A stretch of 64,000 bases of DNA from Synechococcus sp. (GTDB lineage Bacteria; Cyanobacteriota; Cyanobacteriia; PCC-6307; Cyanobiaceae), in contig JBJBDC010000001.1 in the NCBI GenBank assembly GCA_047285535.1, positions 1,952,136 to 2,016,135 of the forward strand, given 5' to 3'. This document shows, in pieces, positions 145-19,304 of this stretch. The translations under genes and the position numbers were made by a program. The first letter of the stretch is position 1. Every line of letters starts with the position of its first letter. Below the pieces are notes generated by a model. It was not told where the DNA came from. It made no database searches and was given only the letters and a program-made list of their open reading frames with translations.

Positions 145-3100
145 ATGGCACCACCCTCCTCTTCAAAACCAAGCCGGCAAGGATCATCGGGCGGAGGCCA
201 AACAGCCAGGCAGCAGCCTGGTGGTTGGGGTGCTCAAGGCGCATCAGAAAGCGGATCCAACCAAAGCCAAGCCCAGGCCCACCTGATCCAGAGTCCAAGC
301 ATCAGCCTCCCAAAAGGAGGCGGCGCGATCCGAGGCATGGGTGAGAAGTTCAGCGCCAACCCGGTCACCGGCAGCGGTTCGATGACCGTGCCGATCGCTA
401 CCAGTCCTGGGCGGAGCGGCTTTGATCCTCAGCTCAGCCTGAGCTACGACTCTGGAGCAGGCAACGGGCCCTTCGGCTTCGGTTGGAGCTTGGCGCTGCC
501 CGCGATCACCCGCAAGACGGACCAAGGCCTGCCCCGCTACAGCGATTGGAGGAGCGATCCGCAGGAGGCGGATGTGTTCGTGCTCTCCGGAGCGGAAGAC
601 CTGGTGCCGGTGCTGCGCCAGGGGGCCGCAGAGCTGGAGATCCACGACGACGTGATCGATGGCTACCGGGTGCGCCGTTACCGCCCCCGCATTGAAGGCC
701 TCTTCGCCCGCATCGAGCGCTGGCAGTGGATCCCCACCAGCGCCGACCCGCGCCCGGAGGCCGAGCAGCGGGCTGATGTGCACTGGCGCTCGATCTCCAG
801 AGACAACATCCTCACGATTTACGGCGCCGATGCCGGCAGCCGTATCGCCGATCCCAAGGATCCCGAGCGCATCTTCAGCTGGCTGATCTGCGAAAGCCGT
901 GACGACAGAGGCAATGGCATCCGCTACCTCTATAAGGCGGAAGACGGCAACACCACCCTGCGGCCCGGGCAGGCTGATCCCTTCCGGGCCGCTCATCAAC
1001 GCAACCGTGGGACAGCGAACGATCTATCCCGCACCGCCCAGCGCTACCTGCAGCGCATCCTCTACGGCAACCGCAGGCCACTGCTCGATGCCCAGGGGCA
1101 ACGCCCGCGGCGATTGAGCAATCTGCCTGCCCCACCCACCGACAACACCGCCGACTGGCTGTTCGAGGTGCGCTTCGACTACGGCGAACTCAACTCAGAG
1201 GATCCCACCGGCACCCCCGAGCAGCCCTGGCTCTACCGCCCGGATGCCTTCTCTACCTACCGCAGCGGCTTCGAGGTACGCACCTGCCGCCGCTGCGAGC
1301 GGGTGCTGATGCTGCACCACATCCCCGATCAGGCCGCCACTGCCGATCGCCCCCTCCAGCCCGGGTACGAAGGCATGGTGCGCAGCACCGAGTTCGTCTA
1401 TGACGACGAGATTGATCCCACGCTCGCCAGCAAACCCGTCTACAGCTTCCTCAGCCAGGTTGTGCAACGGGGCTGGAAGCAGGAGGGCGACGCCATTACC
1501 ACCAAAACGCTGCCTCCTCTGGAGTTCCGCTACAGCCGGCCCACCCTTGGAGAAGACGTGGAGGAGGTTGATCCTGCCAACCTCGAGAACCTGCCGGTCG
1601 GCCTCGATGGCAGCTCTTATCGATGGGTTGACCTTCATGGTGAGGGGCTGCCCGGCATCCTCACCGAACAAGCTGGGGCATGGTTCTACAAGCGCAACCT
1701 CAGCCCGATGAGTCAACGGCTGCGGGCCGATGCCCAGGCCGATGTGGCCACCTTTGCCGCGCTGGAAACGGTCGCCAACCGGCCCAATGTGAGTCTGGCG
1801 GGTGGTGCCCAGATGCTCGATTTGGCCGGCGATGGCCTACCCGATGTGGTGAGCTTCAGCGCCCCCATACCGGGCCTCTATGAACACGACGGCGCCGAGG
1901 GCTGGCAGCCCTTCCGCTCCTTCCGCGAGCTGCCGAACATTGATTTCAACGACCCCAACCTGCGATTCGTCGACCTCGATGGCGACGGCCATGCCGATCT
2001 GTTGATCAGCGAAGGCGATGTGTTCGTGTGGCATCGCTCCCTTGAGGAAAAGGGGTTTGAGACTGCCCAGCGGGTGCCGCTGCCTTGGGACGAAGAAAAA
2101 GGTCCGCGGGTGGTGTTCGCCGACAGCAACGAAAGCATCCATCTGGCGGACATGAGCGGTGATGGACAGGCGGATGTGGTGCGCATCCGCGCCGGCGTCC
2201 ACGGCCGCGAGATCTGCTACTGGCCAAATCTGGGCTACGGTCACTTCGGGGCCAAGGTGTCGATGGATAACCCGCCCCTGTTCGATCATCCGGAACTGTT
2301 TGACCCCAAACGGCTACTGCTGGCCGACATCGATGGCAGCGGCACCACGGACCTGATCTACCTCCACGCCGAGGGGGTGCGGCTCTATTTCAACCAGGCG
2401 GGCAACGGCTGGAGCGACGCAGTGCCCCTGAAGGTGTTCCCGCCGATCCACAACATGGCCCAGGTGGCCACCGTGGATCTGCTGGGCAATGGCACCGCCT
2501 GCCTGGTGTGGTCGTCGCCGCTGGCGGGCGACAGCGGCCGCCAGATGCGCTACGTGCCGCTGATGACCGAAGGAAAGCCGCATCTGCTCACCACCAGCAT
2601 CAACAACCTCGGCGCCGAAACGCAGGTGCGCTATTGCTCTTCCCTGCGCTTCTACCTGGAGGACAAGCTCAACGGCAAACCCTGGATCACGCGCCTGCCG
2701 TTTCCGGTGCATGTGGTGGAGCGGGTGGAAACGATCGACCACATCAGCCGCAATCGCTTCGTCTCGCGCTATGCCTACCACCACGGTTATTTCGATGGCG
2801 AGGAAAGGGAATTCAGGGGCTTCGGCATGGTGGAGCAGTTCGATACCGAAGCATTCGAAGACTATGTCGTTGGCGTTCAGACAGCTGGAGGCTCACAAGA
2901 ACTGGCGCCTGAGCTGAACCAGCCGCCGGTCACGACCCGCACCTGGTATCACACCGGGGCATTTCTCGATCAGCCGCGAATCCTGCACCAGTACCGACAC
3001 GAGTACTACCAGCAAGAGCAGCACATCCCCGAGCCCTTCTTGCCTGCAGGTCTGAGTGCAGACGAACTGCGCGAATGCATTCGTGCCTTGAAGGGTCTGC

Positions 3101-6100
3101 CGCTACGGCAGGAGATCTACAGCCACGACGACTCGGCTGAACAAGAGCACCCATACACGGTCACGGAGAACAATTTCGAGATTCGCTGGCTTCAACCGCA
3201 TAGCAACCAGCGGCACGGCGTCTTTTTTCCGGTGGGCCGGGAATCCATCTCGCTCAACTACGAGCGCAATCCGGCCGACCCTCGCATCTCGCACACCTTC
3301 GGGCTGGAGCTGGATCAGTACGGCAACGTCCGTAAGTCCTGTTCGGTCGTGTATGGCCGCAAGATTGGCGACGCCTCCCTTCCCCCCGAGGTCAACCGCG
3401 ATCAGCAGCAGCGCTACATCACCTATGCCGAGGCGGACTACACGCCCGACATCGATCAAGCAGAGCCGATCGAATCCTACCGCTTGCGTGTGTCCTTCGA
3501 ATCCAGGAACTACGAGATCAACGGTATCGCTCCGGACGCTGCCTTCTTCCAGTTCGAGGAGATCAAGAACAAGATCGCCGCTGCCGCCCCGATCGACTAC
3601 GAAGTTGTCGCGGACAGCGTCACGCCACAGATTCGGCTGCTCTCCCACGGCCGCACGCTCTTCCTCGACAACGCGCTGAACCCCTTGCCATTGGGCCAAT
3701 GGGACTCACTGGGGCTCGACTACCAAAGCTACAAGCTCGTCTTCACTCCTGGCATCACGGCCGCCCATTACGCCGGCAAGGTGAGCGACGCCGAGTTTAC
3801 CGCTGCGGGATATGTGCACTTCGCTGGTGACGCCAACTGGTGGATAACCTCTGGCACGGCTGTCTATCCAGCAAATCCGCGCGACACTTTCTACCTCCCG
3901 ATCGGCACCAAGGATCCTTTCGGACTGGAAACGATTGCGACCTTCGATCAGCACGTCCTCCTGATCGAAAAGGTGGAGGTCAAGCAAGCCGCTTGGAACG
4001 TCGTCGCAGCGGTCAATGACTACCGCATCTTCGGCCCGATGCTGATGACAGACCCCAATGGGAACCGCTCGGCCGTCGAACACGACGAGTTGGGCATGGT
4101 GGTCAAGACCGCCATCATGGGCAAGGCTGGCTCGACGGATGGCGACACGCTGGCCGACCCGACCACGCGGATGGAATACGAGTTGTTCAACTGGAAGAAC
4201 AACCGCAAGCCCAACTTCGTGCATACCTTCGCGCGCGAGCAGCACGGCGCTGCCAATCCGCGCTGGCAGGAGAGTTATGCCTTCTCCAACGGAAGCGGCG
4301 GTGTGGCGATGGTCAAGGCCCAGGCGCATCCCGGCAAGGCGTTTAAGGTGAATATGGACGGCAGCAAAGCCGAAGTGGATGCCGATCCGCGTTGGGTGGG
4401 CAACGGGCGCACCGTGCTCAACAACAAGGGCAAGCCGGTCAAGCAGTACGAGCCTTACTTCAGTACCACCCACGAATACGAAGACGAAAAGGTGCTGCGT
4501 GAGATCGGCGTCACGCCCGTCCTCTACTACGACCCGGTCGGGCGCAACATCCGCACGCTGTTTCCCAACGGCACCTTCGCCAAGGTCGAGTTCACGCCCT
4601 GGTGGCAAAAAGTCTTTGACGCCAACGACACCGTCAAGCAAAGCCAGTGGTACGTCGACCGGGGCAGGCCTGATCCGACAGCAGAGCCCGAACCGCTGAA
4701 CGACCCGGAACGCCGCGCCGCCTGGCTTGCCTCCAAACACGCCGACACGCCTGGCGTCATCCATTTCGACAGCCTGGGCCGACCCGTCTACGCCGTTTCC
4801 GATTACGGCGAAGGAAAGACGGCGGCGGTGCGCTCGGAAAGCGACCTGACTGGGCGCCTCTCGACGATGTTCGATCAGCAGCAACGAGAAGTCGCAAGCG
4901 GCTTCGTTGGCATGGAGGACACCCCCATCGTCGGCGACAGCGCCGAGAAGGGCCGTCGCTGGACCTTCCAGAACGTGCTCGGTGCGCTGGTTAAGACCTG
5001 GGACGAACACGGCCGCCAGTTCCGCGCCGAGTACGACGAGTTGCACCGCCCTGTTAGCACCTTCGTGAAGCAGGCCGGACAAGGGGAGATCCTGTTCAAT
5101 TACATCGTCTATGGCGACCGTCTTGCCAATGCCGGGCAACTCAACCTGCTCGGCACCGCCCATCTGACCTTCGACCAAGCCGGCTTGATGCGAGTGCCGG
5201 AACTGGACTTCAAAGGTAACCCGAAGGCCGTCGATCGCATCCTGGCCAAGGACTACAAAAACGATCTCGACTGGAGCACTCTGCCAGGTCAAACAAATGT
5301 CACCGCCGTCCAAGCCGCCGCAGATCCCGAGCTGGAAGACGCCGAAGTCTTCTCCGCCAGTTCCTTGTACGACGCGCTGAATCGTCCAACTCGGGTCACG
5401 TTGCCCGATGGCACCATCATCATGCCCAGCTACAACGAGGCCAACTTCCTGACCTCACTGAAGGCGCAAATTCGTGGTCAAGGCAATTTCATCGAATTCC
5501 TCAAAGGCCAGGATTACGACGCCAAGGGCCAGCGCCAGTTCGCGCATTACGGCAACGAAGTCTTCACCCGCTACTTCTACGACCCCAAAACCTTCCGCCT
5601 GAGCAATCTGTTGACCTACAAGTCAGGTGCAGACCCGCAGACCCAAGGGCTGCAGAACCTGAACTACTGCTACGACCCGGTCGGCAACATCACCCAGATC
5701 CGCGACGACGCGCAGCAAACCCATTACTTCAACAACGCCGTCGTCAAGCCTGAAAGCCTGTACGAATACGACGCGATCTATCAGCTCTTCCGCGCCAGGG
5801 GTCGGGAACTCGCCGGTGGGGTTAACGACGCCATCTGCACGCACACCGATTTGGATTTCGTCCAACTTCCGCACCCAAACAATGTCAACGCGGTGCGCAA
5901 TTACACCGAGGAATACGAATACGACCTGCTCGGCAATATCAAGGTGATGAAACATCGCTTCCAATCCCAAGCCGGTATCGGTGGCGGCTGGACGCGCCAT
6001 TACCTTTATGCCTTTGACAACGCGCCGGGCAATCGCACCAACCGCCTAACCGCCACCAGCCAGCCAGGCGACCCGGATGCAGGCCCTTATACCGGCACCT

Positions 6101-7896
6101 ACGACTACGACGCCTACGGCAACATGACCCGCATGCCGCACCTAGCGGCCATGGACTGGAACTTCATGGACCAGTTGCACCGGGTGGACTTGGGCGGCGG
6201 CGGGACGGCTTATTACGTCTATGGCCTGGACGGTCAGCGTCTGCGCAAGGTGATCGAGCGCAACGGCAACCTGAAGCTCGAATGGATCTTTCTCGGCGCG
6301 GTGATGATCTTCCGCCGTCGTCGGCGCAACACCAACGATTTGCGTCTGGAACGCTGGACGGTCCACATCAGCGACAACACTGACCACATCGCGCAGGTGG
6401 ATACCAAGACGCGGGACGATGACAACGACGATCCGGCCAATCCGCTCAATGTTCCGCTCATTCGGTATCAGCATGCCAATCACCTCGGCTCAGCGGTGCT
6501 GGAGACAAACGAAGACAGCGACCTGATCTCCTATGAGGAGTACCACCCCTACGGCACCACGGCATATCGCTCGGCTAAACCTGGATTCGATATAAGTCTG
6601 AAGCGATATCGATTCAGCGGGAAGGAGCGGGATGACGAAACTGGGTTGTACTACATCGGCACGAGGTATTACGCGCTATGGCTTGGGAGATGGACTAGTA
6701 CTGATTCAGCTGGATTCGTTGACGGCGTCAACCTATATCGGTATTGCCGGAATTCCCCAACCGTCCATGTAGACCCCACAGGCCTCGATCCTGAGTACCT
6801 TCCCGGAACACCTGAGGATAGGCTCACACCTAAATCAACACAGGCTGAGCGTGAGGCGTTTGCGCGAAGAAGGGGATTCAGGGTTATCGATCCAAATCCA
6901 GAGCAGCAACGCTGGGTAGGGACACCAGAAGCTGGAAGTTGGGAATTGAGCCCTGAAGGAAGACTAGAGAGAATTACTCCAGAAGGAACGCACAGCAGTA
7001 AGCCAGCCCCTAGTACAGGAAATGAAGAACTAGCTACACCAGAACCCCCATTACCAAATAACCCATCTCCAGCGCCCACTCCTGAATCGTCAGAATCAAG
7101 TGATACGAGAAACGGAGAAGGTAGTGAGAGGAGTTTCTTTACCAGCAGCTTCTTCAAAGGATTGGCTGTGGGTCTTGCTGTCACTGTTGCTGTGGTGGCA
7201 GTCGTCGCAACAGGTGGAGCAGCTCTTGCTGCAATTGCGCCGGCTGCTTCAGCCGCAATTGCTTCATCTGGAGTTGGCACAGCAATCGCCATAGCCGGCA
7301 CAACGGTTGCTGTCGCCAACACTGTTCAATCGGTGCGTCAGCGTGATCTCTGGAATAACCCCATCTCGGAGGAGCAAGCCAACTTCAATCTTGGTCTAGG
7401 AGTGGGCTCTTTTGCTTCAGGAGCACTCTCACGCCCAATTTCTGGGGCTGTTAGTCCGCTCGGGCAAAGCTTAGGTCGCGGCGCAGGCCAAGGAATTGAA
7501 AACATGTCGTCAGGAATGTTTATCCCGGCATTGCCTGGTGGAGGAACTTTTGGAGGCGCCATTTCGACTACCGCGGCTGCGGGTGTGAATACAACGTCAG
7601 CTGTAACGGCAGCTGGCACTGCCATGGGAGCCAATGTTCTCATGATGTCCGGCAATCAGGGGGATGATTGGGATGACCAAGGCTGGCGTCCAAAGAAAGC
7701 CAAGGGAAAGACATTTCGCGGAGGAAGAAAGAGCTCTCGAGACAACTGGTATGGGTTTGATCGAGATAAAAATTTCGTCAGATGGTGGCATCGCCAAGGA
7801 AAGTCAGAATTTGGAGGAAATGATATTGATAACGCTGCAGAGGCCAAAGAGATCTATACCTACTGGGTTAGCATTGGAAAGCCGGCGCCAAAATGA
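145..7896 (+). CDS. Fused TcB-TcC toxin-complex subunit: SpvB N-terminal domain, FG-GAP/VCBS propeller repeats, TcdB mid domains, YD/RHS shell, RHS autoprotease and ~369-aa C-terminal cargo (2583 aa)
   Basis: SpvB-type start SLPKGGGAIRGMGEKF...LSLSYDSGAGNGPFGFGWSL; repeated DLxGDGxxD motifs; EFRGFGMVEQ; YDPVGNIT-type YD repeats; core YRFSGKERDDETGLYY...PTVHVDPTGL (D at 6772). Confidence 0.95.
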   Translation: MAPPSSSKPSRQGSSGGGQTARQQPGGWGAQGASESGSNQSQAQAHLIQSPSISLPKGGGAIRGMGEKFSANPVTGSGSMTVPIATSPGRSGFDPQLSLSYDSGAGNGPFGFGWSLALPAITRKTDQGLPRYSDWRSDPQEADVFVLSGAEDLVPVLRQGAAELEIHDDVIDGYRVRRYRPRIEGLFARIERWQWIPTSADPRPEAEQRADVHWRSISRDNILTIYGADAGSRIADPKDPERIFSWLICESRDDRGNGIRYLYKAEDGNTTLRPGQADPFRAAHQRNRGTANDLSRTAQRYLQRILYGNRRPLLDAQGQRPRRLSNLPAPPTDNTADWLFEVRFDYGELNSEDPTGTPEQPWLYRPDAFSTYRSGFEVRTCRRCERVLMLHHIPDQAATADRPLQPGYEGMVRSTEFVYDDEIDPTLASKPVYSFLSQVVQRGWKQEGDAITTKTLPPLEFRYSRPTLGEDVEEVDPANLENLPVGLDGSSYRWVDLHGEGLPGILTEQAGAWFYKRNLSPMSQRLRADAQADVATFAALETVANRPNVSLAGGAQMLDLAGDGLPDVVSFSAPIPGLYEHDGAEGWQPFRSFRELPNIDFNDPNLRFVDLDGDGHADLLISEGDVFVWHRSLEEKGFETAQRVPLPWDEEKGPRVVFADSNESIHLADMSGDGQADVVRIRAGVHGREICYWPNLGYGHFGAKVSMDNPPLFDHPELFDPKRLLLADIDGSGTTDLIYLHAEGVRLYFNQAGNGWSDAVPLKVFPPIHNMAQVATVDLLGNGTACLVWSSPLAGDSGRQMRYVPLMTEGKPHLLTTSINNLGAETQVRYCSSLRFYLEDKLNGKPWITRLPFPVHVVERVETIDHISRNRFVSRYAYHHGYFDGEEREFRGFGMVEQFDTEAFEDYVVGVQTAGGSQELAPELNQPPVTTRTWYHTGAFLDQPRILHQYRHEYYQQEQHIPEPFLPAGLSADELRECIRALKGLPLRQEIYSHDDSAEQEHPYTVTENNFEIRWLQPHSNQRHGVFFPVGRESISLNYERNPADPRISHTFGLELDQYGNVRKSCSVVYGRKIGDASLPPEVNRDQQQRYITYAEADYTPDIDQAEPIESYRLRVSFESRNYEINGIAPDAAFFQFEEIKNKIAAAAPIDYEVVADSVTPQIRLLSHGRTLFLDNALNPLPLGQWDSLGLDYQSYKLVFTPGITAAHYAGKVSDAEFTAAGYVHFAGDANWWITSGTAVYPANPRDTFYLPIGTKDPFGLETIATFDQHVLLIEKVEVKQAAWNVVAAVNDYRIFGPMLMTDPNGNRSAVEHDELGMVVKTAIMGKAGSTDGDTLADPTTRMEYELFNWKNNRKPNFVHTFAREQHGAANPRWQESYAFSNGSGGVAMVKAQAHPGKAFKVNMDGSKAEVDADPRWVGNGRTVLNNKGKPVKQYEPYFSTTHEYEDEKVLREIGVTPVLYYDPVGRNIRTLFPNGTFAKVEFTPWWQKVFDANDTVKQSQWYVDRGRPDPTAEPEPLNDPERRAAWLASKHADTPGVIHFDSLGRPVYAVSDYGEGKTAAVRSESDLTGRLSTMFDQQQREVASGFVGMEDTPIVGDSAEKGRRWTFQNVLGALVKTWDEHGRQFRAEYDELHRPVSTFVKQAGQGEILFNYIVYGDRLANAGQLNLLGTAHLTFDQAGLMRVPELDFKGNPKAVDRILAKDYKNDLDWSTLPGQTNVTAVQAAADPELEDAEVFSASSLYDALNRPTRVTLPDGTIIMPSYNEANFLTSLKAQIRGQGNFIEFLKGQDYDAKGQRQFAHYGNEVFTRYFYDPKTFRLSNLLTYKSGADPQTQGLQNLNYCYDPVGNITQIRDDAQQTHYFNNAVVKPESLYEYDAIYQLFRARGRELAGGVNDAICTHTDLDFVQLPHPNNVNAVRNYTEEYEYDLLGNIKVMKHRFQSQAGIGGGWTRHYLYAFDNAPGNRTNRLTATSQPGDPDAGPYTGTYDYDAYGNMTRMPHLAAMDWNFMDQLHRVDLGGGGTAYYVYGLDGQRLRKVIERNGNLKLEWIFLGAVMIFRRRRRNTNDLRLERWTVHISDNTDHIAQVDTKTRDDDNDDPANPLNVPLIRYQHANHLGSAVLETNEDSDLISYEEYHPYGTTAYRSAKPGFDISLKRYRFSGKERDDETGLYYIGTRYYALWLGRWTSTDSAGFVDGVNLYRYCRNSPTVHVDPTGLDPEYLPGTPEDRLTPKSTQAEREAFARRRGFRVIDPNPEQQRWVGTPEAGSWELSPEGRLERITPEGTHSSKPAPSTGNEELATPEPPLPNNPSPAPTPESSESSDTRNGEGSERSFFTSSFFKGLAVGLAVTVAVVAVVATGGAALAAIAPAASAAIASSGVGTAIAIAGTTVAVANTVQSVRQRDLWNNPISEEQANFNLGLGVGSFASGALSRPISGAVSPLGQSLGRGAGQGIENMSSGMFIPALPGGGTFGGAISTTAAAGVNTTSAVTAAGTAMGANVLMMSGNQGDDWDDQGWRPKKAKGKTFRGGRKSSRDNWYGFDRDKNFVRWWHRQGKSEFGGNDIDNAAEAKEIYTYWVSIGKPAPK

Positions 7897-8408
7897 ATGA
7901 CATTAAAACAGCCACATTTCATCAACTAATAGATCACATTAAGAGTGACGATTCGCATAGAATCATAGAAGCTGTCCGCGAGTGTGCCTCGCGTCAAGAA
8001 GAAGTCGCTGCTCCTTATTTGCTGAATATTCTCCAAGTGACCCAAGACGCTGCAGTGAGAAACGCCGCTGCGCTCGCTTTGAGCGATCTAAAGAATCCCG
8101 CCGCATTTGGCATATTAGTGGAGTTACTGAAAAGCGACCATGCCCGTGAAAGCCAGGGGACGCTTTTATATGCACTCGACACGTACGACTGTTCACCAAT
8201 CTTGCCCTTATTAGTAAATCTGGTTATTGATGGAAATTTTGAGGTTAGTCGACAAGCATTTAGCCTGATCTCTGGCATTGAAACTGAGCTAGACGATCGT
8301 GTTTGGCAAAGCTGTAGAGAACGACTACAGTCTGCAATTGTGGTTACCACAGAAGATCAGCGGCCAGTACTGGAGGAACTGCTCAAGCTGTTCGAGCAGG
8401 ATGAATAG
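7893..8408 (+). CDS. HEAT-repeat protein, putative immunity protein for the TcC cargo (171 aa)
   Basis: ATGA overlap with toxin stop; HEAT-like VRNAAALALSDL, EVSRQAFSLI; AT-rich like the cargo; immunity role inferred from position. Confidence 0.7.
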   Translation: MNDIKTATFHQLIDHIKSDDSHRIIEAVRECASRQEEVAAPYLLNILQVTQDAAVRNAAALALSDLKNPAAFGILVELLKSDHARESQGTLLYALDTYDCSPILPLLVNLVIDGNFEVSRQAFSLISGIETELDDRVWQSCRERLQSAIVVTTEDQRPVLEELLKLFEQDE

Positions 8409-8447
8409 GTGAGCTAGACCGCTTTTTTGAACTAGAAAACTTGGACG

Positions 8448-8675
8448 ATGGAACTTACGCTATTCACCGACCTAATCGACGCCCCCGGCAATGTCGCCGG
8501 CGGCCTGAAAGCCATCGTCAACCTGCCCTAAGCCGAAGGCGAAGCGATACTCCGGTCGCTAGACGAGACCTATCTCCTCATCAACACCACGCTCAACATG
8601 CTGTTCATCGGCCAGCAACTCGCCAATAACGCCCGCAGCGCCACTCGCGACAACCAACGCATCCCTCCTGTTTGA
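8448..8675 (+). pseudogene. Degraded hypothetical gene with in-frame stop
   Basis: Frame from ATG 8448 reads MELTLFTDLIDAPGNVAGGLKAIVNLP*(TAA 8529)AEGEAILRSLDETYLLINTTLNMLFIGQQLANNARSATRDNQRIPPV*; helical, protein-like on both sides of the stop. Confidence 0.55.
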
Positions 8676-9406
8676 AATGCACTGAGCACATTTCACCCTG
8701 TGCTAAGCCCCGAACGGATAAAAACAATTAAACGAGAACTCGCGTTTTTGAAAGTGCAGAGTCGACACGCCAAGACTCCAATCTGGCTTACCTACGTCTC
8801 TGTAATTCCGGCAGAAGAGCTTATTAACACCATGATTCCCCACCGGCTCTAACTACTCCTACGTGGTCTCCATCAATCAGCAACTGCTCTTGCTAAAGGT
8901 GGCGGCCGCCTGGTTCACCTACTGGTGATTCTTGATCCGTTTGACTCCACACCATCAGCGTGGATCTAGTCGTCAACGAGGCAGTGCAGTTGCAGCGACA
9001 AGGAGATTCTTTGGATCGTGAATCCGGCCGACTCTGCTTTTCTGCAACATTGCCAACTGCAGGGCCAAACGAAGAATAACCAGCTCTGGCCTCTGTCTTT
9101 GGTCTGAGTGCCGCAACATCTTCAAACGGCTCAAACCCTTACCACCTGAATCACCTGACACTTCAGGCCACTGTTGTCATAAAGGGAGAAGGCAACGGGA
9201 CCACCTAGTCCCCCACCTCAAAAAAACTATGGCTGCCTCCCCAGCTTCGGCCACTCCCCTCTACGCGGGGCCACACCCGATGGCAAGGCCCAGCTCGCCA
9301 AGAGCGCAGACCACGCCAACTGAATTCCTGATCGGTCGCGCCCCATCCAACCCACTCAATGGGATGGGGTGGGAATAACACTCATCATCGTGCGATTGGA
9401 ACACAA

Positions 9407-9435
9407 GCCTTCTCCCCGCGGTAGGGGGGCGTTTT
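9407..9435 (+). terminator. Possible intrinsic terminator upstream of tcA
   Basis: GCCTTCTCCCC-GCGGT-AGGGGGGC imperfect stem followed by GTTTT. Confidence 0.3.
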
Positions 9436-12400: not shown

Positions 12401-15400
12401 GCTGAACGATGCGACGCTGCTCGGACTGATGCGGCTGCAGAAAATCCGCGATGCCTGGCGGCTCACCGTAGAGGAGGTGCTGGCCTTGATCGCACCTCTC
12501 GACATTCGGGTGCGCGACTGGCTGACGGGGGACGGACGGTCGCTCTACACCGACCTCTTCGAGGATCGCGCGGTACAGAACCCACCCGATCCTGACCTCT
12601 CCATCACCGCCGTGACCGCCGCGGTGCCGCCCGCGCTGATCGGCAGCAAGGCGGCGATCCTCTCGGCCAGCATCGCCATCACCGCCGACGATTTCGCTCT
12701 TCTAGTGCCGACCACCGCCGACCCCGATCTCGCCCTTCCCGTCGCGAGCGACCGTGCGTCACTGAGCGCTATTTCGCAGGTTTATCGCTTCTCGAGGCTG
12801 GGCCAGGTCCTTCGGCTGCGGGTGTCCGAGCTGCTGGACTTCGCCCGACTTGCCAGGGCGCCGCTGAATGCGGACGGGCGGGTCGATCCCTTCCAGACGG
12901 TGCAGACGCTGACCGATTTCCTGACAATGTTCAGCCGTCACTCGGCGAGCGGTCTTGCCATCGGGGAATCGCGCCACGCCACGACCTTCTGGCCCGAGTC
13001 CATCTTCGGCGCTGGGGACAGCGCGATCTCGGCCAATCTCGAAGAAATCCGCACTGCGCTTGCCGACCTTCGGGCCGAGACCATCGTGCCCGCGGAAGAG
13101 CGCGCCGCTGCGCTTGAGCGCCATTTGCCTGGGGTTGCAGACTTCAAGGATGCAGCGATCCGCGCAACCGCCATCGCGATCATCGACGACAGCTATGCCG
13201 ACACGCTCGCCAACCGGAACGCCTTCATCACCAGCCATTTCAGCGCGCTGATGCCGGTGGCCGCGGCCATCGCCGCCTTCGCGCCCTATGGCGGGCCGCC
13301 CGCCGGCGGCGATGCGGCGGTCGACGCGCGCAGGCTGATCGGGTTGCAGGCGGTCTACAACGCGCTCGGCCGCACCGCCATCACCGCCGCCGTAACAGGC
13401 CAGACCGGAGCCAGGTCGGAGGCCGAGGCGGCCGACTTCCTGTCCTGGTCCATGCAACGCAGCGGGCTCGACAGCCTCGGCGCGCTGATCCTGGCCGAGA
13501 GCGACTTCCTCACGCGCACCGCTGATGACAGCGCCTACCTCCTGACCGCCGACAGCACCGACATGCCCGATATCTTCGAGGCGGCGCAGCTCGTGGACAA
13601 GCTCGCCTTCATTAAGGAGGCGCTCGGCTGGAGCGATGCGCAGCTGATTTGGTTCGTCAGCAACGAAGGGAGCTTCGGATTACCACAGCTGACCGCGCTG
13701 CCCGTCAAGGCGGGCGACGGTCCCGCAGCCTTCGTGGAGTGGCTGACACTGCTGCGCTGGACGCAGGTCATGAACGCCTTCCCCAGCTCCGAGACCCTAT
13801 CGCTGCCAGGCATTCTCGGCCAGATCGGGAGCGCGGGTTACAACGCCACACAACTGGCCGAGGACCTCGCCGTCTGGACCCAGCGGGTACCCGAGACGAT
13901 GTCGGGTGCCATCGCCGAGCTTGCGCTTGCCTATCCCGGTGATTTCCGCACGGTCGGCGCCTACGAGCGGCTACTGACCGCGCTCGAGGTGATCAAGCTC
14001 GCCGGTGTGACCCCGGCCCAGCTCACCGCCTGGGCGCAGCCCGGCGTGACCCCTGCCGTGGCGCAGCAGATCAAGCTCGCCGCCAAGGCGCGCAATTCGC
14101 TCGATGAATGGCTGAAGAACGCGCCGCCGCTGCAGGACCGCCTGCGCGAGGCCAAGCGCGTCGCGCTCATTACCTACCTGACGACCCGACCCGCCTCAGC
14201 CGGACCGTCGTGGCGCGACGCGAACGCGCTATTCGCGCATTTCCTGATCGACCCCGAGATGACCGCCTGCCGCAAGTCCTCGCGGCTGGTGCAGGCCACG
14301 GGATCGCTGCAGCTTTTCGTGCAGCGCTGCCTGATGAACCTCGAACCCGCCGTGCTGGCCGATGGCGATGACGATGGCTGGAACGAATGGGACTGGATGT
14401 ATGCCTACCGCCTCTGGGAAGCCGCGCGGAAGGTCTTCCTCTGGCCCGAGAACGTGATCCGGCCCGAGCTCAACCGGATGAAATCCCCGGCGCTCCTGCA
14501 GCTTGAACAGAAGCTGTCGCAGATGGAGATGACCGAGGAGAACGCCGAGATCGCAATGGAGCAGTACCTCGAGACGCTTGACGGCATCGCGAATATGGAC
14601 GTCCTCGCCATGTACGAGGAAACGACTGGCCGCGACCGTCTCATTCACACGCTGGCCCGCACCAAGGGCCAGCCGCAGACCTACTACTACCGGCAGAGGG
14701 TCTTTCCCAACAACGCCGCATCCGCCTACTGGACGCCGTGGGAGAAGCTCGACATCGAGATCGGCGGCACGCCGATTTTCGGCTTCATCAACCGCAAGCT
14801 GCATCTCTTCTGGCTGTTCTTCACCAAGAGAGCGGACCCAACCCAGCGTATGCCTCCCTCGCAGGCGTCAAACCAGCCGCCGCCTGACACGATCAACATG
14901 TGGGAAATCCAGCTTTGCTGGTCAGTCCGGCGGCAAGGTCACTGGCAGCCGGCGCAGAAGGGCGAACGCAAGTGGTTCTACCCACAATTCCGACCCAAGC
15001 GCAGCTTCCACTTGCGCACCGCGGCCTATGCCGGCGACCGATTGGCGATCAACGTCTTCGTCTCAACCTCGCCGGAATTCAACGACTACGCCCCTTGGAC
15101 CTATTTGTCCACCAGTGTGGGAACAATCCAACTACAACGGGATCCGGTGCGGCATAACGAGGACACGCGACCTTTTCATGTCGCTCGCTTCGTCTTCAAG
15201 AGCAACGTGGACGAGATCCAGATGAGCCAACGCGGGCAGACCTACCCATCTGACATTTTCGGGGGCTCTTACGGGGCCGAGGCCGCCGAGATGAAAGAGC
15301 TGACAAACCCGCTCGCTGACCTAACCATGCCGACCGACATGAAATATGTCGGCCAGACGATTCAGAACCAGTCCGATAATGACTCGAACCTCCATGCCCT

Positions 15401-18400
15401 TCCGTCGGCGGGCCCGGCCCTGCGGCTTGACAGCGGCAAGCTGCTCGATGACGCGCCCGCCCCGTTCGGCATTGTCCCATCGTCGCAGCGCGCGCAGTTC
15501 GACTCAACCCGGCCCTTCTTCTACACCGATCGCGAGCGCAGCTTCTTCGTGCGGCCGACCAAGGAATGGCGCGTGGACCATTCCTTCACAACCGAGGAAC
15601 CTTCTCTGTCGGGGGTCACCGACTACAGGGTCAAATACACGTTCGACCGCAATTATCACCCGTTCACCGGCTTCTACCTCGACGAACTAGCAACCGGCGG
15701 GTTGAGTGGCTTATTCAAACGCTCGAACCAGCTTTCGCCACCCTCGTCCTTCAGCTTCGCCGAGTACGACCCCGAACAAATGGTCAAAGCCGACCATCCG
15801 AACGACATCGTCGATTTCGGATTCTCGGGGACTTATTCCCTTTACAACTGGGAATTACTGTTTCACGCTCCATTCCTGATTGCGAACCGGCTATCGGAGA
15901 ACCAGCGCTTTGACGAAGCGCTCAACTTCCTCCGCTACATCTTTAATCCGACTAATACCGGCAGCGATAACGCTCCGCAGCGGTTCTGGATCACGAAGCC
16001 TTTCTACCAAATGAGCTCCGGGGCTTATCACTCCAGCCGGATCGAACGCCTACTGGAACTCGTCAATGGCGGATCTTCAACTCATATAGCTCAAGTTGAG
16101 CAATGGCGCAACGATCCCTTCGATCCTCACATGCTCGCACGGCTCCGGCCCGTCGCCTATCAACGCGCCGTGGTGATGGCCTATATCGGCGCCCTGCTGG
16201 ACTGGGGTGAACAGGAGTTCCGGCGCTTCACCACCGAGAGCCTCAACCTCGCCACGCAATACTTCGTGCGTGCACAGGACCTGCTAGGACGGCGGCCCGA
16301 GACCGTTGTGGTCGACCGGCGCACCGAGGCGAAAAGCTTCCGCGAGGTCGAAACCGATCTTGACGCATTCGGCAACCTGCTGTCCGAGGTCGAGAACCTG
16401 CTGCCGCCTCCACCTCCAGGCGGCCCCGGCGGGTCAGAACCGCTGCCCCCGATCACCATCTTTTATTACTGCATCCCCGGAAACGACAAGCTTCTGGACT
16501 ACTGGGACCGAGTGGAGCGCAACCTCTTCAATCTGCGCCATTGCCGCGATATCGAAGGTGTCTCCAAGCCTTTACCACTTTTCGCGCCACCGATCGACCC
16601 GGCGATGCTGGTGCGAGCAGCGTCCGCAGGCATCGACCTCGCGACGCTGGCGGGCGGAACGGCCTCGGCTCTGCCGAAATACCGCTTCCGCTTTATCCTT
16701 CAGCGTGCCTACGACTTCGCCTCCCAGGTCGAGCGGTTGGGCGCGGCCCTGCTATCTGCCTTTGAACGCAAGGACGAGGTGGCGCTCGCTGAGCTGCGCG
16801 AAAGCCACGTGGCTGAAATCCACACGCTTCGCGAAGACATCGCGTCACTCCGAATCAATGAGGCCAAGGCCGAGTTGGACCGACTGAAGGAGTCCAAGAA
16901 ACTCGTCGGTCTTCGAGAAACGTTCTACAAGAAGAAGACCGAAACGCCGGTTGGTGTGTTGGAGACGATCGGCATCGGGCTGAAGGGAACGAGCTTCCTT
17001 TTGAGCAGCACCTCCTTCGGGCTGAAGCTTGCGAGCGGCGGGCTGTACTGGATACCTGACTTCCAAGGCGGTGCCTCTGGTGTGGGTGGCACCCCGCATG
17101 CAACGCTCAAAGCAGGTGGCAAGCAGGCTGGAGACAGCACCAAAACGCTCTCAGATGGCTTCAAGGAACTGGCCTACTTAGCTGACAAGGGTGCTGAACT
17201 GAGCTTCAAGATCCAGTATTTCCTCGACCGTCACAAGCAGTACGAACACCAGCTCAAGCTTGCCGAACAGGAGATTGTCGCGATCGAGAAGCAGGAGGCC
17301 AAGGCTGAGATCCTCCAACAGATCGCCGAGCAGGAGTCCGATGTTCAGAAGCAGCATTCCGAAAACGCCGAGGCAACGTTGGCTTTCTTGCGGTCGCGCT
17401 ACACCAACAAGGAGCTCTACGACTGGCTGATCGCGCAACTTTCGACGATCTATTTCCAGTCGTACCAGAGCGCATTCGCCATGGCGCTCTCTGCCGCGGC
17501 TTGCGCCGAACGCGAGGTGGGGCTGATCGGCACGAACTACATCAAGTTCGGCTACTGGGACAGCCTGCGCAAGGGCCTACTGTCGGGCGAGAAGCTGAGC
17601 CAAGACCTCAGACGGCTTGAGACGGCCTATCTCGACCGCAACCAGAGGCTCTACGAGATCCAGAAGGACGTCTCTGTGGCGCTTCTGGATGCGGAGGCCC
17701 TGCTGACCCTGCGTGCGACAGGGGCCTGCGAGATCGAAGTGCCCGAGCTGATCTTCGACTGCGACTATCCGGGCCACTACAAGCGCCGCATCAAGTCCGT
17801 CGCGATTACCATCCCAACTGTCGCAGGTCCTTACACCTCGGTCAATTGCAAACTGACGCTGCTACGCGACGAGATACGTCTGAACACAAGCCTCGCGCTG
17901 GGCTATCCGCGCACCTCGATGACCGATGACGACCGCTTCGCCGACAACTGGGCGGCGACTAATGCCATCGTGACCTCAAAGGCGATCAATGATGCTGGTC
18001 TCTTCGCGCTCGATCTCGAAGACGACCGCTATCTGCCTTTCGAGGGCGCGGGAGCCGTTGGCCGCTGGCGGATTGAGCTACCGGCCGACACCAATGCCTT
18101 CGCGCTCGATTCGGTTTCAGACGTCGTACTGCACCTCCGCTACACCGCGATGGAAGGCGGCGAGACACTTGCCGAGGCAGCACGCGCGGTCGCCTCGAAG
18201 CGCGAGGTAGCGAAAAGCGCCAGGATCATGCGCCTCGACCAGGCTTACGCCGCGGCATGGCAAAGTCTCGTCTCTGCTCCTGGCACTGGGCAGGATCAGG
18301 CAATGTCTCTCGCGTTCACCAAGGAGCTCTTGCCCTATCTCGACCGGGTCCGCGACCTGAAGGTGACGTCTATCGCCCTCTCCGCCATAGACGCAACCGG

Positions 18401-18641
18401 TGACCTGACAGCAGAGATTACGGCGCCAGGTGGGATGGTGGGAACCATCGAGATGACAACGGACAGCGACCTTGGTGGTCGCATCTCGGGCGATACAGCG
18501 GGCAGCTTCGCAGCGGGTGTGCCCCTAGGAGACTTCACGCTGAAGCTGCGCATGTCGACTGCCATGGACAACCGCTCCCTGACCGAAGCGGACCTGTCAG
18601 GTTTGTACGCCGTGGTCTTCTACGAAGCGGAACTGCCGTGA
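9498..18641 (+). CDS. TcA-like toxin-complex pore-forming subunit with N-terminal peptidoglycan-binding-like domain (3047 aa)
   Basis: GAGGA RBS; N-terminal VANLHAALKALG...FGSETAKSVAALQEAAGLQQTGDVD; VRP1/SpvA-like LFGSLDSCGCEWCESVHGPAAYL; neuraminidase-like region FLIDPEM...QLFVQRC...YRLWEAARKVFLWPEN; YNWELLFHAP; C-terminal TcB-binding domain DYPGHYKRRIKSV...YLPFEGAGAVGRWRIELP. Confidence 0.93.
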   Translation: MEKIVAPISRMMKNAAVANLHAALKALGRSLPDIETKTNYFGSETAKSVAALQEAAGLQQTGDVDTATAKHLNKILAEKGLFDDAPPDGDGRGSGGSERNGNTDKPETVHVFGRVISHKERPAQGVVTIFRAAFRTEEKLVAFETDQKGRYEGKLIRDPATGPLNIFARITLNNGTTITSDLVFNAAGKVELNLNAAGRLIPTQSVFEEIETNVRMVIGSAAIASLRETRTQTDITYLAQDRKLDPEMLARRAMAERIGKAQKIAPEVIFAFLAQSEPAVLPSSSLTATPTQDAADDLENRVFAGIVTLDEPTQRRILQKAIAKDLVRFDIAEAIDEAIKSLRTRRGLVLANAPFGAGKKSMNDLLSATSLNQTQRTTFVNYSMKVQAEGGLLWEALEMNEAIPAAKLREARATFAFGAMSKNHIPFIEYAKAALPDEMTGEPGRVAYLTLKEWTTFLNRGVEAGKEVIPDNIDGETQEDRVGAFAQMLMERAEDNYPAMATIGRIRERDDVKLDAAGELVAAVSKVPDMNLRTLNINAVRLGRDVALGEETLAKTLRTTIKIVSDMSDESVADLKRAQRAVRLAPNATAAAALLATGQDSAHLIHKRGRSNFIADAIKAGMTDLQAGQTFNRAKASYGYLVARFLEYRLDLDKASPAAVGGAWKSDDLIAEVENDPSLRTLFGSLDSCGCEWCESVHGPAAYLTDVLRWLGERRARSGSGFASARAVLEDRRGDILDILLNCQNTDTLMPYIDLVNEVLEEAVSPTGVARQTNWRSEELMAEPEHVNDDAYALLAVASHAPGLPFDLRDTEAQTYLAHLRLTRAEVMEALRKQTNGLPSERDIAAAYFGISNAASVIITKADPAAQATFWAYSAPSELIPNASCETLMARADISHNDLAELLNVEFVNGTAPRSTFQPEFECDLIDRRVTQLSVERLDRMNRFIRLWRHLGWKMWELDRAIMAMGGVLNDATLLGLMRLQKIRDAWRLTVEEVLALIAPLDIRVRDWLTGDGRSLYTDLFEDRAVQNPPDPDLSITAVTAAVPPALIGSKAAILSASIAITADDFALLVPTTADPDLALPVASDRASLSAISQVYRFSRLGQVLRLRVSELLDFARLARAPLNADGRVDPFQTVQTLTDFLTMFSRHSASGLAIGESRHATTFWPESIFGAGDSAISANLEEIRTALADLRAETIVPAEERAAALERHLPGVADFKDAAIRATAIAIIDDSYADTLANRNAFITSHFSALMPVAAAIAAFAPYGGPPAGGDAAVDARRLIGLQAVYNALGRTAITAAVTGQTGARSEAEAADFLSWSMQRSGLDSLGALILAESDFLTRTADDSAYLLTADSTDMPDIFEAAQLVDKLAFIKEALGWSDAQLIWFVSNEGSFGLPQLTALPVKAGDGPAAFVEWLTLLRWTQVMNAFPSSETLSLPGILGQIGSAGYNATQLAEDLAVWTQRVPETMSGAIAELALAYPGDFRTVGAYERLLTALEVIKLAGVTPAQLTAWAQPGVTPAVAQQIKLAAKARNSLDEWLKNAPPLQDRLREAKRVALITYLTTRPASAGPSWRDANALFAHFLIDPEMTACRKSSRLVQATGSLQLFVQRCLMNLEPAVLADGDDDGWNEWDWMYAYRLWEAARKVFLWPENVIRPELNRMKSPALLQLEQKLSQMEMTEENAEIAMEQYLETLDGIANMDVLAMYEETTGRDRLIHTLARTKGQPQTYYYRQRVFPNNAASAYWTPWEKLDIEIGGTPIFGFINRKLHLFWLFFTKRADPTQRMPPSQASNQPPPDTINMWEIQLCWSVRRQGHWQPAQKGERKWFYPQFRPKRSFHLRTAAYAGDRLAINVFVSTSPEFNDYAPWTYLSTSVGTIQLQRDPVRHNEDTRPFHVARFVFKSNVDEIQMSQRGQTYPSDIFGGSYGAEAAEMKELTNPLADLTMPTDMKYVGQTIQNQSDNDSNLHALPSAGPALRLDSGKLLDDAPAPFGIVPSSQRAQFDSTRPFFYTDRERSFFVRPTKEWRVDHSFTTEEPSLSGVTDYRVKYTFDRNYHPFTGFYLDELATGGLSGLFKRSNQLSPPSSFSFAEYDPEQMVKADHPNDIVDFGFSGTYSLYNWELLFHAPFLIANRLSENQRFDEALNFLRYIFNPTNTGSDNAPQRFWITKPFYQMSSGAYHSSRIERLLELVNGGSSTHIAQVEQWRNDPFDPHMLARLRPVAYQRAVVMAYIGALLDWGEQEFRRFTTESLNLATQYFVRAQDLLGRRPETVVVDRRTEAKSFREVETDLDAFGNLLSEVENLLPPPPPGGPGGSEPLPPITIFYYCIPGNDKLLDYWDRVERNLFNLRHCRDIEGVSKPLPLFAPPIDPAMLVRAASAGIDLATLAGGTASALPKYRFRFILQRAYDFASQVERLGAALLSAFERKDEVALAELRESHVAEIHTLREDIASLRINEAKAELDRLKESKKLVGLRETFYKKKTETPVGVLETIGIGLKGTSFLLSSTSFGLKLASGGLYWIPDFQGGASGVGGTPHATLKAGGKQAGDSTKTLSDGFKELAYLADKGAELSFKIQYFLDRHKQYEHQLKLAEQEIVAIEKQEAKAEILQQIAEQESDVQKQHSENAEATLAFLRSRYTNKELYDWLIAQLSTIYFQSYQSAFAMALSAAACAEREVGLIGTNYIKFGYWDSLRKGLLSGEKLSQDLRRLETAYLDRNQRLYEIQKDVSVALLDAEALLTLRATGACEIEVPELIFDCDYPGHYKRRIKSVAITIPTVAGPYTSVNCKLTLLRDEIRLNTSLALGYPRTSMTDDDRFADNWAATNAIVTSKAINDAGLFALDLEDDRYLPFEGAGAVGRWRIELPADTNAFALDSVSDVVLHLRYTAMEGGETLAEAARAVASKREVAKSARIMRLDQAYAAAWQSLVSAPGTGQDQAMSLAFTKELLPYLDRVRDLKVTSIALSAIDATGDLTAEITAPGGMVGTIEMTTDSDLGGRISGDTAGSFAAGVPLGDFTLKLRMSTAMDNRSLTEADLSGLYAVVFYEAELP

Positions 18642-19072
18642 TGGAACAGCCTCTGCAAACCTCCAGCGGCTCTGTCGATGCAGTGGAAGAAGTCGCGAGC
18701 AGGCTGGAGCCAGAGCGAGCGATTGCCCTGAAACGCGCGGTCAGCGTCCTGAAGGAATTTTACGATCCTCCAGCGATCTTCCTCTTTGGCTCATCAGCCA
18801 AAAACAAGGCCAGCACATTGAGCGATCTGGACCTTTTAATCCGCATGCAGAGCCGAGAAAGACGTAGCGCACGCGGCACCGAATTCAAAGAGGTGTTCCT
18901 TAGCAGCTATCCGCGGGTCGACCTCGTCGTCTTCAACGATGACGAGGTACGCCATCATCTCGCCAACCCGTATTCCTTCCTATCGAGTGTGATGGCTAGC
19001 GCACGGCCACTTTTTCTGAAATCGCCACATGACGAGCCGCTCCTGCAGGGTGCACGGGGACTGAACTATTAA
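18638..19072 (+). CDS. Minimal nucleotidyltransferase (MNT, Pol-beta superfamily)
   Basis: FLFGS-x10-DLD motif plus third Asp (RVDLVV); GTGA overlap with tcA stop. Confidence 0.85.
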   Translation: MMEQPLQTSSGSVDAVEEVASRLEPERAIALKRAVSVLKEFYDPPAIFLFGSSAKNKASTLSDLDLLIRMQSRERRSARGTEFKEVFLSSYPRVDLVVFNDDEVRHHLANPYSFLSSVMASARPLFLKSPHDEPLLQGARGLNY

Positions 19073-19262: not shown

Positions 19263-19304
19263 ATCGTCGCTCTAGACCACCTCAGATGTTGGCCTTACCC
19301 ATAG

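Follow-up and report, generated by a model that had tools for sequence, protein, structure and literature searches.

The stretch of DNA analysed here (the window, 64,000 nucleotides in full) covers positions 1952136-2016135 of a single-contig, 3.03-Mb Synechococcus sp. genome and contains a complete Tc (ABC) toxin locus, in which the terminal domain of the toxin cargo and the gene that overlaps its end very probably form a toxin-immunity cassette. Four open reading frames (ORFs), all on the + strand, occupy window positions 145-19072, with the same coordinates as in a preliminary description of the locus. That description had recognised an intact tcB-tcC fusion, an overlapping HEAT-repeat gene, an intact 3047-aa tcA and an overlapping nucleotidyltransferase gene, all co-oriented, and the ORFs and Pfam matches agree with it. 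A genome-wide search found one Tc locus in the genome, namely this one. Its principal features are as follows.

145-7896, + strand: tcB-tcC fusion, 2583 aa from the first ATG, with SpvB, FG-GAP_3, TcdB_toxin_midN, TcdB_toxin_midC and RHS_repeat matches (Pfam)
6757-6786, + strand: end of the RHS core, PTVHVDPTGL, which fits the PxxxxDxxG self-cleavage motif of TcC; predicted cleavage site
6787-7134, + strand: tip part 1, an acidic proline-rich linker (tip residues 1-115, pI 4.69) that varies among relatives
7135-7671, + strand: tip part 2, a hydrophobic Gly/Ala-rich pre-toxin module (tip residues ~116-295) that ends in VLMMSG
7702-7893, + strand: tip part 3, a predicted basic helical toxin domain of ~64 aa (pI 9.9), C-terminal in nearly all listed homologues
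7893-8408, + strand: HEAT-repeat gene, putative immunity gene, 171 aa, pI 4.58, HEAT_2 match; ATGA overlap of 4 nt with tcB-tcC
9498-18641, + strand: tcA, 3047 aa, with PG_binding_1 (9537-9713), VRP1, ABC_toxin_N, Neuraminidase-like and TcB-binding (17289-18149) domains

The tcB-tcC product (P0001) combines the parts of a TcB and a TcC protein. Its TcB part consists of an SpvB N-terminal domain (PF03534, E 6.5e-99), a beta-propeller and the TcdB middle N and C regions, with Pfam matches to PF13517, PF12256 and PF12255. The TcC part has RHS repeats, an RHS-associated core (TIGR03696, Rhs_assc_core, residues 2133-2214; NCBIfam), the PxxxxDxxG motif and a tip smaller than 40 kDa: PTVHVDPTGL ends at residue 2214 and leaves a tip of 369 aa, 38.4 kDa and pI 5.9. 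The database copy of the protein (P0268) has 2519 aa against 2583 aa for the longest ORF, and this difference of 64 aa leaves the true start of tcB-tcC uncertain. TcA (P0003) has a C-terminal TcB-binding domain that matches positions 1-287 of the 287-position TcA_TcB_BD model (PF18276, E 4.3e-106), together with ABC_toxin_N (PF20220, E 5.8e-39) and a neuraminidase-like shell domain (PF18413, E 1.4e-24). VRP1 reaches 25.5 bits in TcA against a cut-off of 22, and the other matches to Tc parts lie well above their cut-offs. The peptidoglycan-binding-like N-terminus of the preliminary description is borne out by a PG_binding_1 match (PF01471) at TcA residues 14-72, with 37.8 bits against a cut-off of 23, and every family named there for a profile scan (SpvB, TcdB mid, RHS, VRP1, Neuraminidase, TcA_TcB_BD, PG_binding_1) was matched.

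The tip has three parts that behave differently among relatives. Identity of the linker to those of five relatives ranges from 23 of 111 up to 102 of 115 positions. The pre-toxin module includes the run previously described as membrane-spanning (TcB-TcC residues ~2331-2390), for which Kyte-Doolittle means of up to 2.3 were obtained from hydropathy alone. The terminal domain has the signature FRGG-K-RD-WYG ... F-RWWHR-GK ... GGxD ... W ... GKP-K (alignment A2) and is modelled by AlphaFold with a pLDDT above 90 over its last ~45 residues. The GC content falls to 0.43-0.49 in the toxin domain and the HEAT gene, which differs from both neighbours. No Pfam family matches the 369-aa tip, pre-toxin module included, at E ≤ 10, save for one chance match at 0.064. 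PT-TG (PF14449) is likewise without a match in the tip at E ≤ 10, and the pre-toxin module resembles it only in being hydrophobic and glycine-rich.

Homologues of the toxin domain are numerous and occur at the ends of many kinds of proteins. An exhaustive phmmer search with the last 94 aa of the tip gave 169 matching clusters at E ≤ 0.001 and 69 at E ≤ 1e-10. The match forms the C-terminal end of nearly all listed proteins (47 to 1999 aa long), with few exceptions, e.g., P0124, P0169 and P0211. Forty of the longer matches were scanned for families, as proteins alone and without their neighbouring genes: 13 are RHS-type, four have PT-HINT (one of them also RHS), three have eCIS_core (one also PT-TG), one has DUF6443 and 20 are without a family; PT-TG is thus present in one other carrier of the toxin domain, P0176. 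A hydrophobic stretch precedes the toxin domain in 24 of 51 matches of at least 250 aa, a figure that has no control. Structure searches gave little: Foldseek against the PDB found nothing at E ≤ 0.001, the best VIA-align match in a wide search had a Z of 3.3 (rmsd 3.2, 51 aligned), a score that says nothing useful about so small a helical domain, and the ESM Atlas yielded no usable match. Since the domain has neither a family nor an informative fold match, we assign it to no enzymatic class. A lead to Tox-REHH was dropped by description, because the accessible part of its source (bioRxiv 10.64898/2026.09.22.753552) gives Imm22, SUKH, CdiI-like and Imm24 as partners and does not contain the word HEAT; the accessible part of a PT-TG survey (PMC13483458) mentions neither Tc nor HEAT immunity. 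The predicted toxin domain, previously unnamed, is newly defined here together with a HEAT-type immunity family.

The HEAT gene provides the second half of the cassette. Its product (P0002) matches HEAT_2 (PF13646) with 41.4 bits against a cut-off of 27.7 and has 62 homologues of about 170 aa besides itself. It agrees with the description of Imm-HEAT, i.e., a HEAT-repeat protein encoded beside a polymorphic toxin; Pfam has no separate Imm-HEAT model, and neither of the partners of Imm-HEAT, Ntox34 and Tox-REase-7, matches the tip at E ≤ 10 in Pfam. One hundred loci (52 from genomes and 48 from metagenomes) were fetched through the HEAT family, with sources that include Myxococcota, Actinoplanes, Paenibacillus, Planococcus, Alphaproteobacteria and others. 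A hidden Markov model (HMM) of the toxin domain matches 35 of the 100, i.e., 10 of the genome and 25 of the metagenome loci, and all full-length matches lie on the same strand as the HEAT match and 6-135 nt upstream of it. The carriers at these loci comprise a 1671-aa RHS protein, shorter RHS proteins, a metagenome protein with a Tox-PAAR-like N-terminus, start-less orphan tips (L007, L035, L079, L101, L119) and stand-alone ORFs. The toxin domain and the HEAT gene form a conserved two-gene cassette, which in other phyla stands behind other delivery domains. At one locus (L110), the toxin domain is split across two adjacent frames. In ten metagenome loci (L102, L103, L106, L111, L114, L115, L120-L123), the HEAT gene comes after a toxin ORF that stands alone, has 76-89 aa and begins with a start codon of its own.

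A structural model of the complex points in the same direction. The HEAT protein and the 94-aa tip end were modelled together in three runs, each with its natural alignment, and gave an ipSAE of 0.88 (median of the three runs) against 0.01 for the best control. The mark for this score is attained by 116 of 157 solved complexes and by 2 of 215 mismatched pairs, calibration counts that hold only roughly here because custom alignments were used. The runs share at least 82% of contacts and the pLDDT of the partner is at least 63. Contacts on the HEAT side involve N57, L61, G89, T90, Y93, F116, E117 and V118, all in invariant or near-invariant columns, and those on the toxin side involve the near-invariant H60, R61, K64 and D71. 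The HEAT protein is thus predicted to bind the toxin domain through conserved residues, which the model supports and does not demonstrate. Taken with the conserved gene order, the HEAT gene is strongly supported as the cognate immunity gene of the terminal toxin domain.

The tip also varies in the manner of polymorphic toxins. A search with the end of the TcB-TcC core (residues 1700-2214) matched 5444 proteins at E ≤ 0.001. The best 119 of these 5444 matches, with the window's own protein excluded (P0269-P0387), are 65-89% identical, and most have 2500-2600 aa with SpvB and TcdB domains. Their source names include Aphanothece, Halomonas, Paracoccus, Rhodococcus, Arthrobacter, Microbacterium, Paenibacillus, Roseiflexus, Acidobacteria and Verrucomicrobia; such diversity of names at this level of identity suggests that the TcB-TcC fusion clade has spread widely by horizontal transfer among Gram-positive and Gram-negative phyla. 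With the window's own protein included, 119 of 120 proteins had alignments that reached the end of the core, and their tips fell into 10 clusters of 98, 6, 4, 3, 2, 2, 1, 1, 1 and 1 members. A strongly hydrophobic stretch is present in 115 of the 119 tips. The largest tip family contains 98 of the 119, and the three members read end in long glycine-zipper-like hydrophobic stretches. The window's tip belongs to the cluster of six, in which the linker is variable and the pre-toxin module is 48-75% identical and ends in VLMMSG. Beyond this point three members share the window's toxin domain (three of the 120 proteins overall) and three have unrelated ends (20-24% identity). One carrier of the toxin domain, P0269, has a core end 89% identical to that of the window, and both it and the HEAT homologue P0007 stem from a JGI contig of 15,241 nt, where their genes are probably adjacent. 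One of the unrelated ends has a precomputed match, placed in the end by elimination, to PF09000, a cytotoxic-domain family. As judged from these alignments, the sharp swap point after VLMMSG is a signature of a polymorphic toxin.

Tc loci from five other cyanobacterial genomes (G226, G024, G631, G477, G513) provide a second comparison. In each, tcA comes after a tcB-tcC fusion; the cores share 30-54% identity with the window's core, the tips are unrelated to its tip, and none of the five has the HEAT gene, the toxin domain or the nucleotidyltransferase gene. The G226 tip matches SsdA_C, a single-strand DNA deaminase toxin domain, with 29.7 bits against a cut-off of 27. The gap between its tcB-tcC and tcA genes holds a DDE_Tnp_1_assoc ORF on the opposite strand, and no immunity gene was identified in that gap after the deaminase-like tip. 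The gap gene of G513 encodes a PDDEXK_3 protein and has no evident immunity character. G024 has its tcA divided between two ORFs. The gene after the TcC tip at that locus (L064:561-1691) encodes an N-terminal membrane part and a C-terminal NUDIX domain, and may be an immunity or accessory gene of another type. A LysM-like or phospholipase-like character of the G024 tip, suspected by eye, was rejected because no Pfam family matches at E ≤ 1e-4, and no claim is made for it. Tips and downstream genes vary among the cyanobacterial Tc loci in these alignments, and an immunity gene is not universal. The survey for variable tips and variable downstream genes that had been proposed in the preliminary description thus found both kinds of variation, and it found no immunity gene in some of the loci. 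The polymorphic toxin-immunity layout proposed there stands, with support from the cross-phylum cassette, the binding model, the swaps of the terminal domain and the varying cyanobacterial tips.

An orphan copy of the HEAT gene occurs in an unrelated genomic setting. Positions 9986-10590 of the metagenome locus L078 correspond to window 7878-8482, with 99.5% DNA identity over 605 nt, and the HEAT ORF is intact with 98% protein identity. Only the last ~15 nt of the toxin ORF are retained and there is no toxin domain. The rest of L078 (15 kb) has nothing in common with the window's genome in DNA (E ≤ 1e-10) or protein (E ≤ 1e-5) comparisons, and its other genes encode a Ser/Thr kinase, a PEGA protein, an IS91 transposase and FG-GAP/ASPIC proteins; with this gene content and nothing shared, the locus does not come from a picocyanobacterium. 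The shared module is flanked on both sides by the 7 bases TATAGGC, which look like the target-site duplication of a 0.6-kb mobile unit, and the IS91-type transposase lies 4.3 kb away. A toxin-less immunity gene in an unrelated marine bacterium would be expected if bacteria meet the toxin domain.

These findings suggest how the system might work. By sequence, TcA is the translocation channel, with its TcB-binding domain, and the TcB-TcC fusion is the RHS cocoon with a cargo that consists of a variable linker, a conserved hydrophobic module and a swappable toxin domain. The cargo would be cut at PTVHVDPTGL and kept inside the cocoon. No signal peptide is apparent in TcB-TcC or TcA when the sequences are read by eye, so the holotoxin would probably be released by lysis, and TcA would then inject the cargo across the target membrane. 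A basic toxin domain, an acidic HEAT protein with no signal peptide visible by eye and the burial of conserved His, Arg, Lys and Asp residues in the modelled interface suggest that the terminal domain acts on a conserved cytoplasmic target, probably nucleic acid; the HEAT protein would shield the producer and its kin. If the target is a bacterium, the hydrophobic module could take the small domain through the inner membrane once it has reached the periplasm. We consider it likely that the Tc proteins function in delivery of the cassette. That neighbouring bacteria are the target is a more tentative proposal, which we slightly prefer over grazers and to which we give somewhat less than even chances.

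Three observations favour a bacterial target, namely the lone HEAT gene in L078, the PG_binding_1 domain on TcA and the classical polymorphic-toxin proteins that carry the toxin domain elsewhere. The second is a weak pointer to the target. PF01471 occurs in 18 of 34 proteins among the matches listed for the N-terminal 700 aa of TcA (own TcA included), a share that is biased upward because the query itself contains PF01471; the closest relative among these matches is 80% identical over those 700 aa and named Aphanothece. The domain appears to be a recurrent add-on and a putative peptidoglycan binder, and three of the six cyanobacterial TcA proteins begin instead with a CarboxypepD_reg-like domain.

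Several points weigh against this interpretation, some of them against the target and some against the pairing of toxin and antidote. Among the six cyanobacterial TcA proteins, PG_binding_1 is above its cut-off only in that of the window; it reaches 22.8 bits in G226 and 16.6 in G513, and none was found in G631, G477 and G024. The distance between tcB-tcC and tcA is 259 nt in G631 and 165 nt in G477, which leaves no room for an immunity gene. The toxin domain is missing at 65 of the 100 HEAT-family loci, many of which lie beside housekeeping genes and some of which adjoin SUKH, SUFU, DUF2247, DUF4279 or DMP19 genes, so the more distant members of the HEAT family may have a role other than immunity. 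The orphan gene in L078 could be the leftover of a lost toxin gene or a protection against another carrier. Any toxin whose target is universal would call for an immunity gene, no matter which organism is attacked, and the nucleic-acid target is one that we infer, the toxin domain having no fold or family match. Three carriers of the toxin domain are cargo of the extracellular contractile injection system (eCIS) type, and eCIS often act on eukaryotes. To our knowledge, action on bacteria has not been demonstrated for any Tc toxin.

The strongest alternative is a weapon against grazers, which we think possible though doubtful. The Tc complex and its cargo would be aimed at flagellates and ciliates and would fire at the membrane of the acidified food vacuole after a cell has been eaten or lysed, and the HEAT protein would guard the producer from a toxin with a universal target. 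Grazing is a main cause of picocyanobacterial death. In the accessible text of Song et al. (PMC7861908), Tc targets are understood to be eukaryotic, and all characterised Tc toxins hit eukaryotic cells. TcA of the window retains the neuraminidase-like and VRP1 shell parts of known toxins, the absence of an apparent signal peptide in the Tc proteins fits release by lysis or digestion, and the carriers of eCIS type agree with such a use. Against it stands the intact, 99.5%-identical and toxin-less immunity gene of L078, which would be puzzling if bacteria were never exposed to the toxin, and the other carriers of the toxin domain are of RHS, PT-HINT and PAAR-like types. Host-directed effectors are, moreover, told apart by their lack of immunity genes in the accessible text of Zhang et al. 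2012 (PMC3482391).

Returning to neighbouring bacteria as the target, the preliminary description had proposed a Tc syringe aimed at bacteria. Its layout has held up; the bacterial target is plausible but tentative, given the weak peptidoglycan clue and an immunity gene that fits any universal target. The fullest form of this proposal is that the locus represents the first Tc injectosome in bacterium-against-bacterium warfare in the open ocean, in which TcA crosses the outer membrane of the prey and the hydrophobic module the inner one. We regard this as unlikely, although worth stating for what it would imply: unrelated marine bacteria would survive by acquiring the matching HEAT gene, which moves as a unit of 0.6 kb, and the cross-phylum clade of near-identical TcB-TcC fusions would be a widespread and overlooked antibacterial delivery system.

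It is also conceivable, and in our judgement improbable, that the toxin and HEAT genes are a mobile, addiction-like module that landed at an RHS tip and has little bearing on what the Tc complex does. The stand-alone toxin ORFs followed by HEAT genes in ten metagenome loci would suit such a selfish cassette, as would the GC content of 0.43-0.49 unlike both neighbours and the TATAGGC repeats that bracket the HEAT module in L078. Yet in the window a single reading frame runs from the pre-toxin module, which Tc relatives have conserved, into the toxin domain, and the swap point is sharp; two other TcB-TcC proteins bear the domain likewise, and the start-less orphan tips are typical of RHS displacement and not of toxin-antitoxin modules.

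The remaining parts of the locus lie between the HEAT gene and tcA and beyond the end of tcA.

8409-9497, no strand assigned: spacer of 1.09 kb between the HEAT gene and tcA, with short ORFs only
18638-19072, + strand: minimal nucleotidyltransferase, 144 aa, with NTP_transf_2 and Polbeta matches
19149-19286, + strand: relic of the 3' part of another tcA, detected by blastx just after the nucleotidyltransferase gene

The spacer is unique in the genome. Three short ORFs within it have no Pfam match, no Rfam family matches it, and blastx against the proteins collected for this analysis gave no match, so that it holds no recognisable gene or orphan cassette; a scan for promoters and terminators gave results close to the shuffled expectation. 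The GTG start of the nucleotidyltransferase gene overlaps the tcA stop by 4 nt and the next ATG overlaps it by 1 nt. Its product reaches 28 bits against the MntA model NF047752 (cut-off 60) and has only weak matches to PDC-S09 in PADLOC. No HEPN partner was found, the next ORFs being without a Pfam family. An MntA/HepT (type VII) toxin-antitoxin pair was rejected on the grounds of the MntA score below cut-off and the lack of an adjacent HEPN toxin. The tcA relic aligns to residues 3042-3079 of P0226 (50% identity, E 1e-6) and to 17 further TcA proteins in blastx, and it corresponds to residues 2860-2900 of the window's TcA. It marks the tcA end as the site of an earlier replacement or insertion. 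The nucleotidyltransferase gene, which the preliminary description had listed with the Tc genes, is absent from all five other cyanobacterial Tc loci and sits between tcA and the relic; for these reasons it is read as a passenger at a recombination scar and not as a Tc component. Slightly further on, at window 20148-20483, the match of a 111-aa ORF to the Amidase model (445 positions) is confined to positions 319-421, and the ORF is probably a gene fragment in a decayed island edge.

The Tc genes are foreign to their genome in composition and distribution. Their GC content of 0.60-0.66 compares with a genome mean of 0.506, and TcA_TcB_BD carriers were found in none of 16 genomes of the same genus, two of 300 others of the same family and seven of 400 others of the same phylum. 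Within 20 kb upstream of the window there are a tyrosine integrase and assorted accessory genes. The integrase (L002:5241-6215) lies ~14-15 kb upstream of the window, where the GC content is mixed (0.43-0.60), which indicates that the variable island reaches well past the Tc genes. No transfer RNA (tRNA) gene that could serve as an integration site was found in the window or in the 20 kb upstream, and no Rfam family in window 1-24000. The right flank consists of ordinary cyanobacterial genes, and the window's PGK shares a 90%-identity cluster with proteins named Synechococcus sp. WH 7805, Vulcanococcus and Cyanobium. The earlier picture of an island beside Synechococcus-like core genes is therefore upheld by the foreign GC content, the integrase and the PGK cluster, and the Tc locus is best read as intact and gained by horizontal transfer. 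Two side observations concern other genes of the region. At L002:12380-14462, 5.7-7.8 kb upstream of the window, a SLATT/DUF4231 two-transmembrane effector gene overlaps the end of a family-less 536-aa ORF; the pair has no PADLOC match and may be a defence module. Window 38337-42728 encodes a 1463-aa protein with CBM_2 (two matched stretches) and a GH9 domain, an unexpected enzyme for a picocyanobacterium.

The assembly of the region appears sound. The genome has one contig, a completeness of 99.99% and a contamination of 0.15%. In public runs, which may be the source data of the genome itself, a 35,823-nt contig (X1) spans window 6001-23211 with 0 differences and a 22,629-nt contig (X3) spans window 16221-26000 without a difference, both with even depth. 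Since these single contigs bridge the island and the core genes across their junction, a chimeric assembly, which had been named earlier as a possible flaw, is very unlikely. Two marine metagenome runs of another study (X4 and X5) contain small pieces of the tip, tcA and flank at identities of at least 95%. It is most improbable that the locus is a recent acquisition whose genes are intact merely through recency and are neither expressed nor assembled in this host: the strain-specific occurrence (0 of 16 same-genus genomes), the foreign GC content, the adjoining relic of another tcA, the split tcA of G024, the transposase-associated gene between tcB-tcC and tcA in G226 and a look-up of RNA runs for the stretch that listed none would all suit such a fate, but the ORFs of 2583 and 3047 aa are without stop codons, a second closed genome encodes a TcA of the same length (P0266, 3047 aa, in the same 90%-identity cluster as that of the window) and related pieces recur in the sea.

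Work on Tc toxins has dealt with their action on insects and animals and with their use in protein delivery. In the present locus a complete Tc system carries a cargo and an antidote from the pool of interbacterial toxins, and its host is a member of one of the most abundant groups of marine phototrophs. The analysis also defines a hydrophobic pre-toxin module with a sharp swap point and points to a large cross-phylum clade of TcB-TcC proteins. Whether Tc toxins act on bacteria can now be tested directly, for which a single toxin, immunity gene and knockout would suffice. The literature outside subscription journals yielded no report of a Tc toxin in Synechococcus, and, again outside subscription journals and supplements, no description of an immunity gene at a locus with TcA or of a peptidoglycan-binding TcA. 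What appears to be new is the layout of toxin tip and antidote gene, typical of interbacterial toxins, in a complete Tc locus with TcA; polymorphic tips on SpvB-RHS proteins and Imm-HEAT were already known.

Among known systems, Photorhabdus TcdA1-TcdB2-TccC3 and Yersinia entomophaga YenTc share with the window the domain sets of TcA, TcB and TcC, the PxxxxDxxG motif and a tip smaller than 40 kDa. The window's locus differs from these insecticidal toxins in several respects: TcB and TcC are fused and encoded upstream of tcA, TcA bears an N-terminal PG_binding_1 domain and is about 500 aa longer than TcdA1, and the cargo combines a module rich in predicted transmembrane segments with a small domain held in common with interbacterial toxins. 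In addition, a putative immunity gene overlaps tcC, and the host is a free-living marine phototroph. In the accessible text of Song et al. 2021 (PMC7861908), which defines the PxxxxDxxG motif and the 40-kDa limit for tips, TcC tips are described as polymorphic, with 99.8% smaller than 40 kDa and 36.5% with a pI below 7. No immunity proteins are reported there for the 1,608 Tc loci surveyed, from which B-C fusions were excluded, and this was taken as consistent with eukaryotic targets. The same source, as far as accessible, describes a single-gene B-C fusion in Burkholderia pseudomallei (ABA52082.1), which resembles that of the window by description.

Closer in logic are the polymorphic toxins proper. 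The accessible text of Zhang et al. 2012 (PMC3482391) places a 'TcdB/TcaC' pathway among polymorphic toxins with immunity proteins, and this type shares with the window an SpvB domain, a beta-propeller and RHS repeats with variable tips; Imm-HEAT is already present there. The pairing differs, in that Imm-HEAT is associated in that text with Ntox34 and Tox-REase-7, neither of which the window's tip matches, and cyanobacteria are missing from the phylum list for the pathway. The window's locus also contains a full TcA, whereas the accessible part of PMC3482391 shows no link to a TcdA/TcA channel. The Rhs pairs of type VI secretion systems (T6SS), e.g., RhsA-RhsI of Pseudomonas protegens, as described in accessible parts of PMC8765631 and PMC8636562, likewise have an RHS cocoon, a self-cleaved C-terminal toxin, a downstream immunity gene, tip displacement and orphan cassettes. 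The window's fusion differs from them in having no PAAR or VgrG-binding part and no T6SS, and it has in their place a TcB-like N-terminus and a TcA partner.

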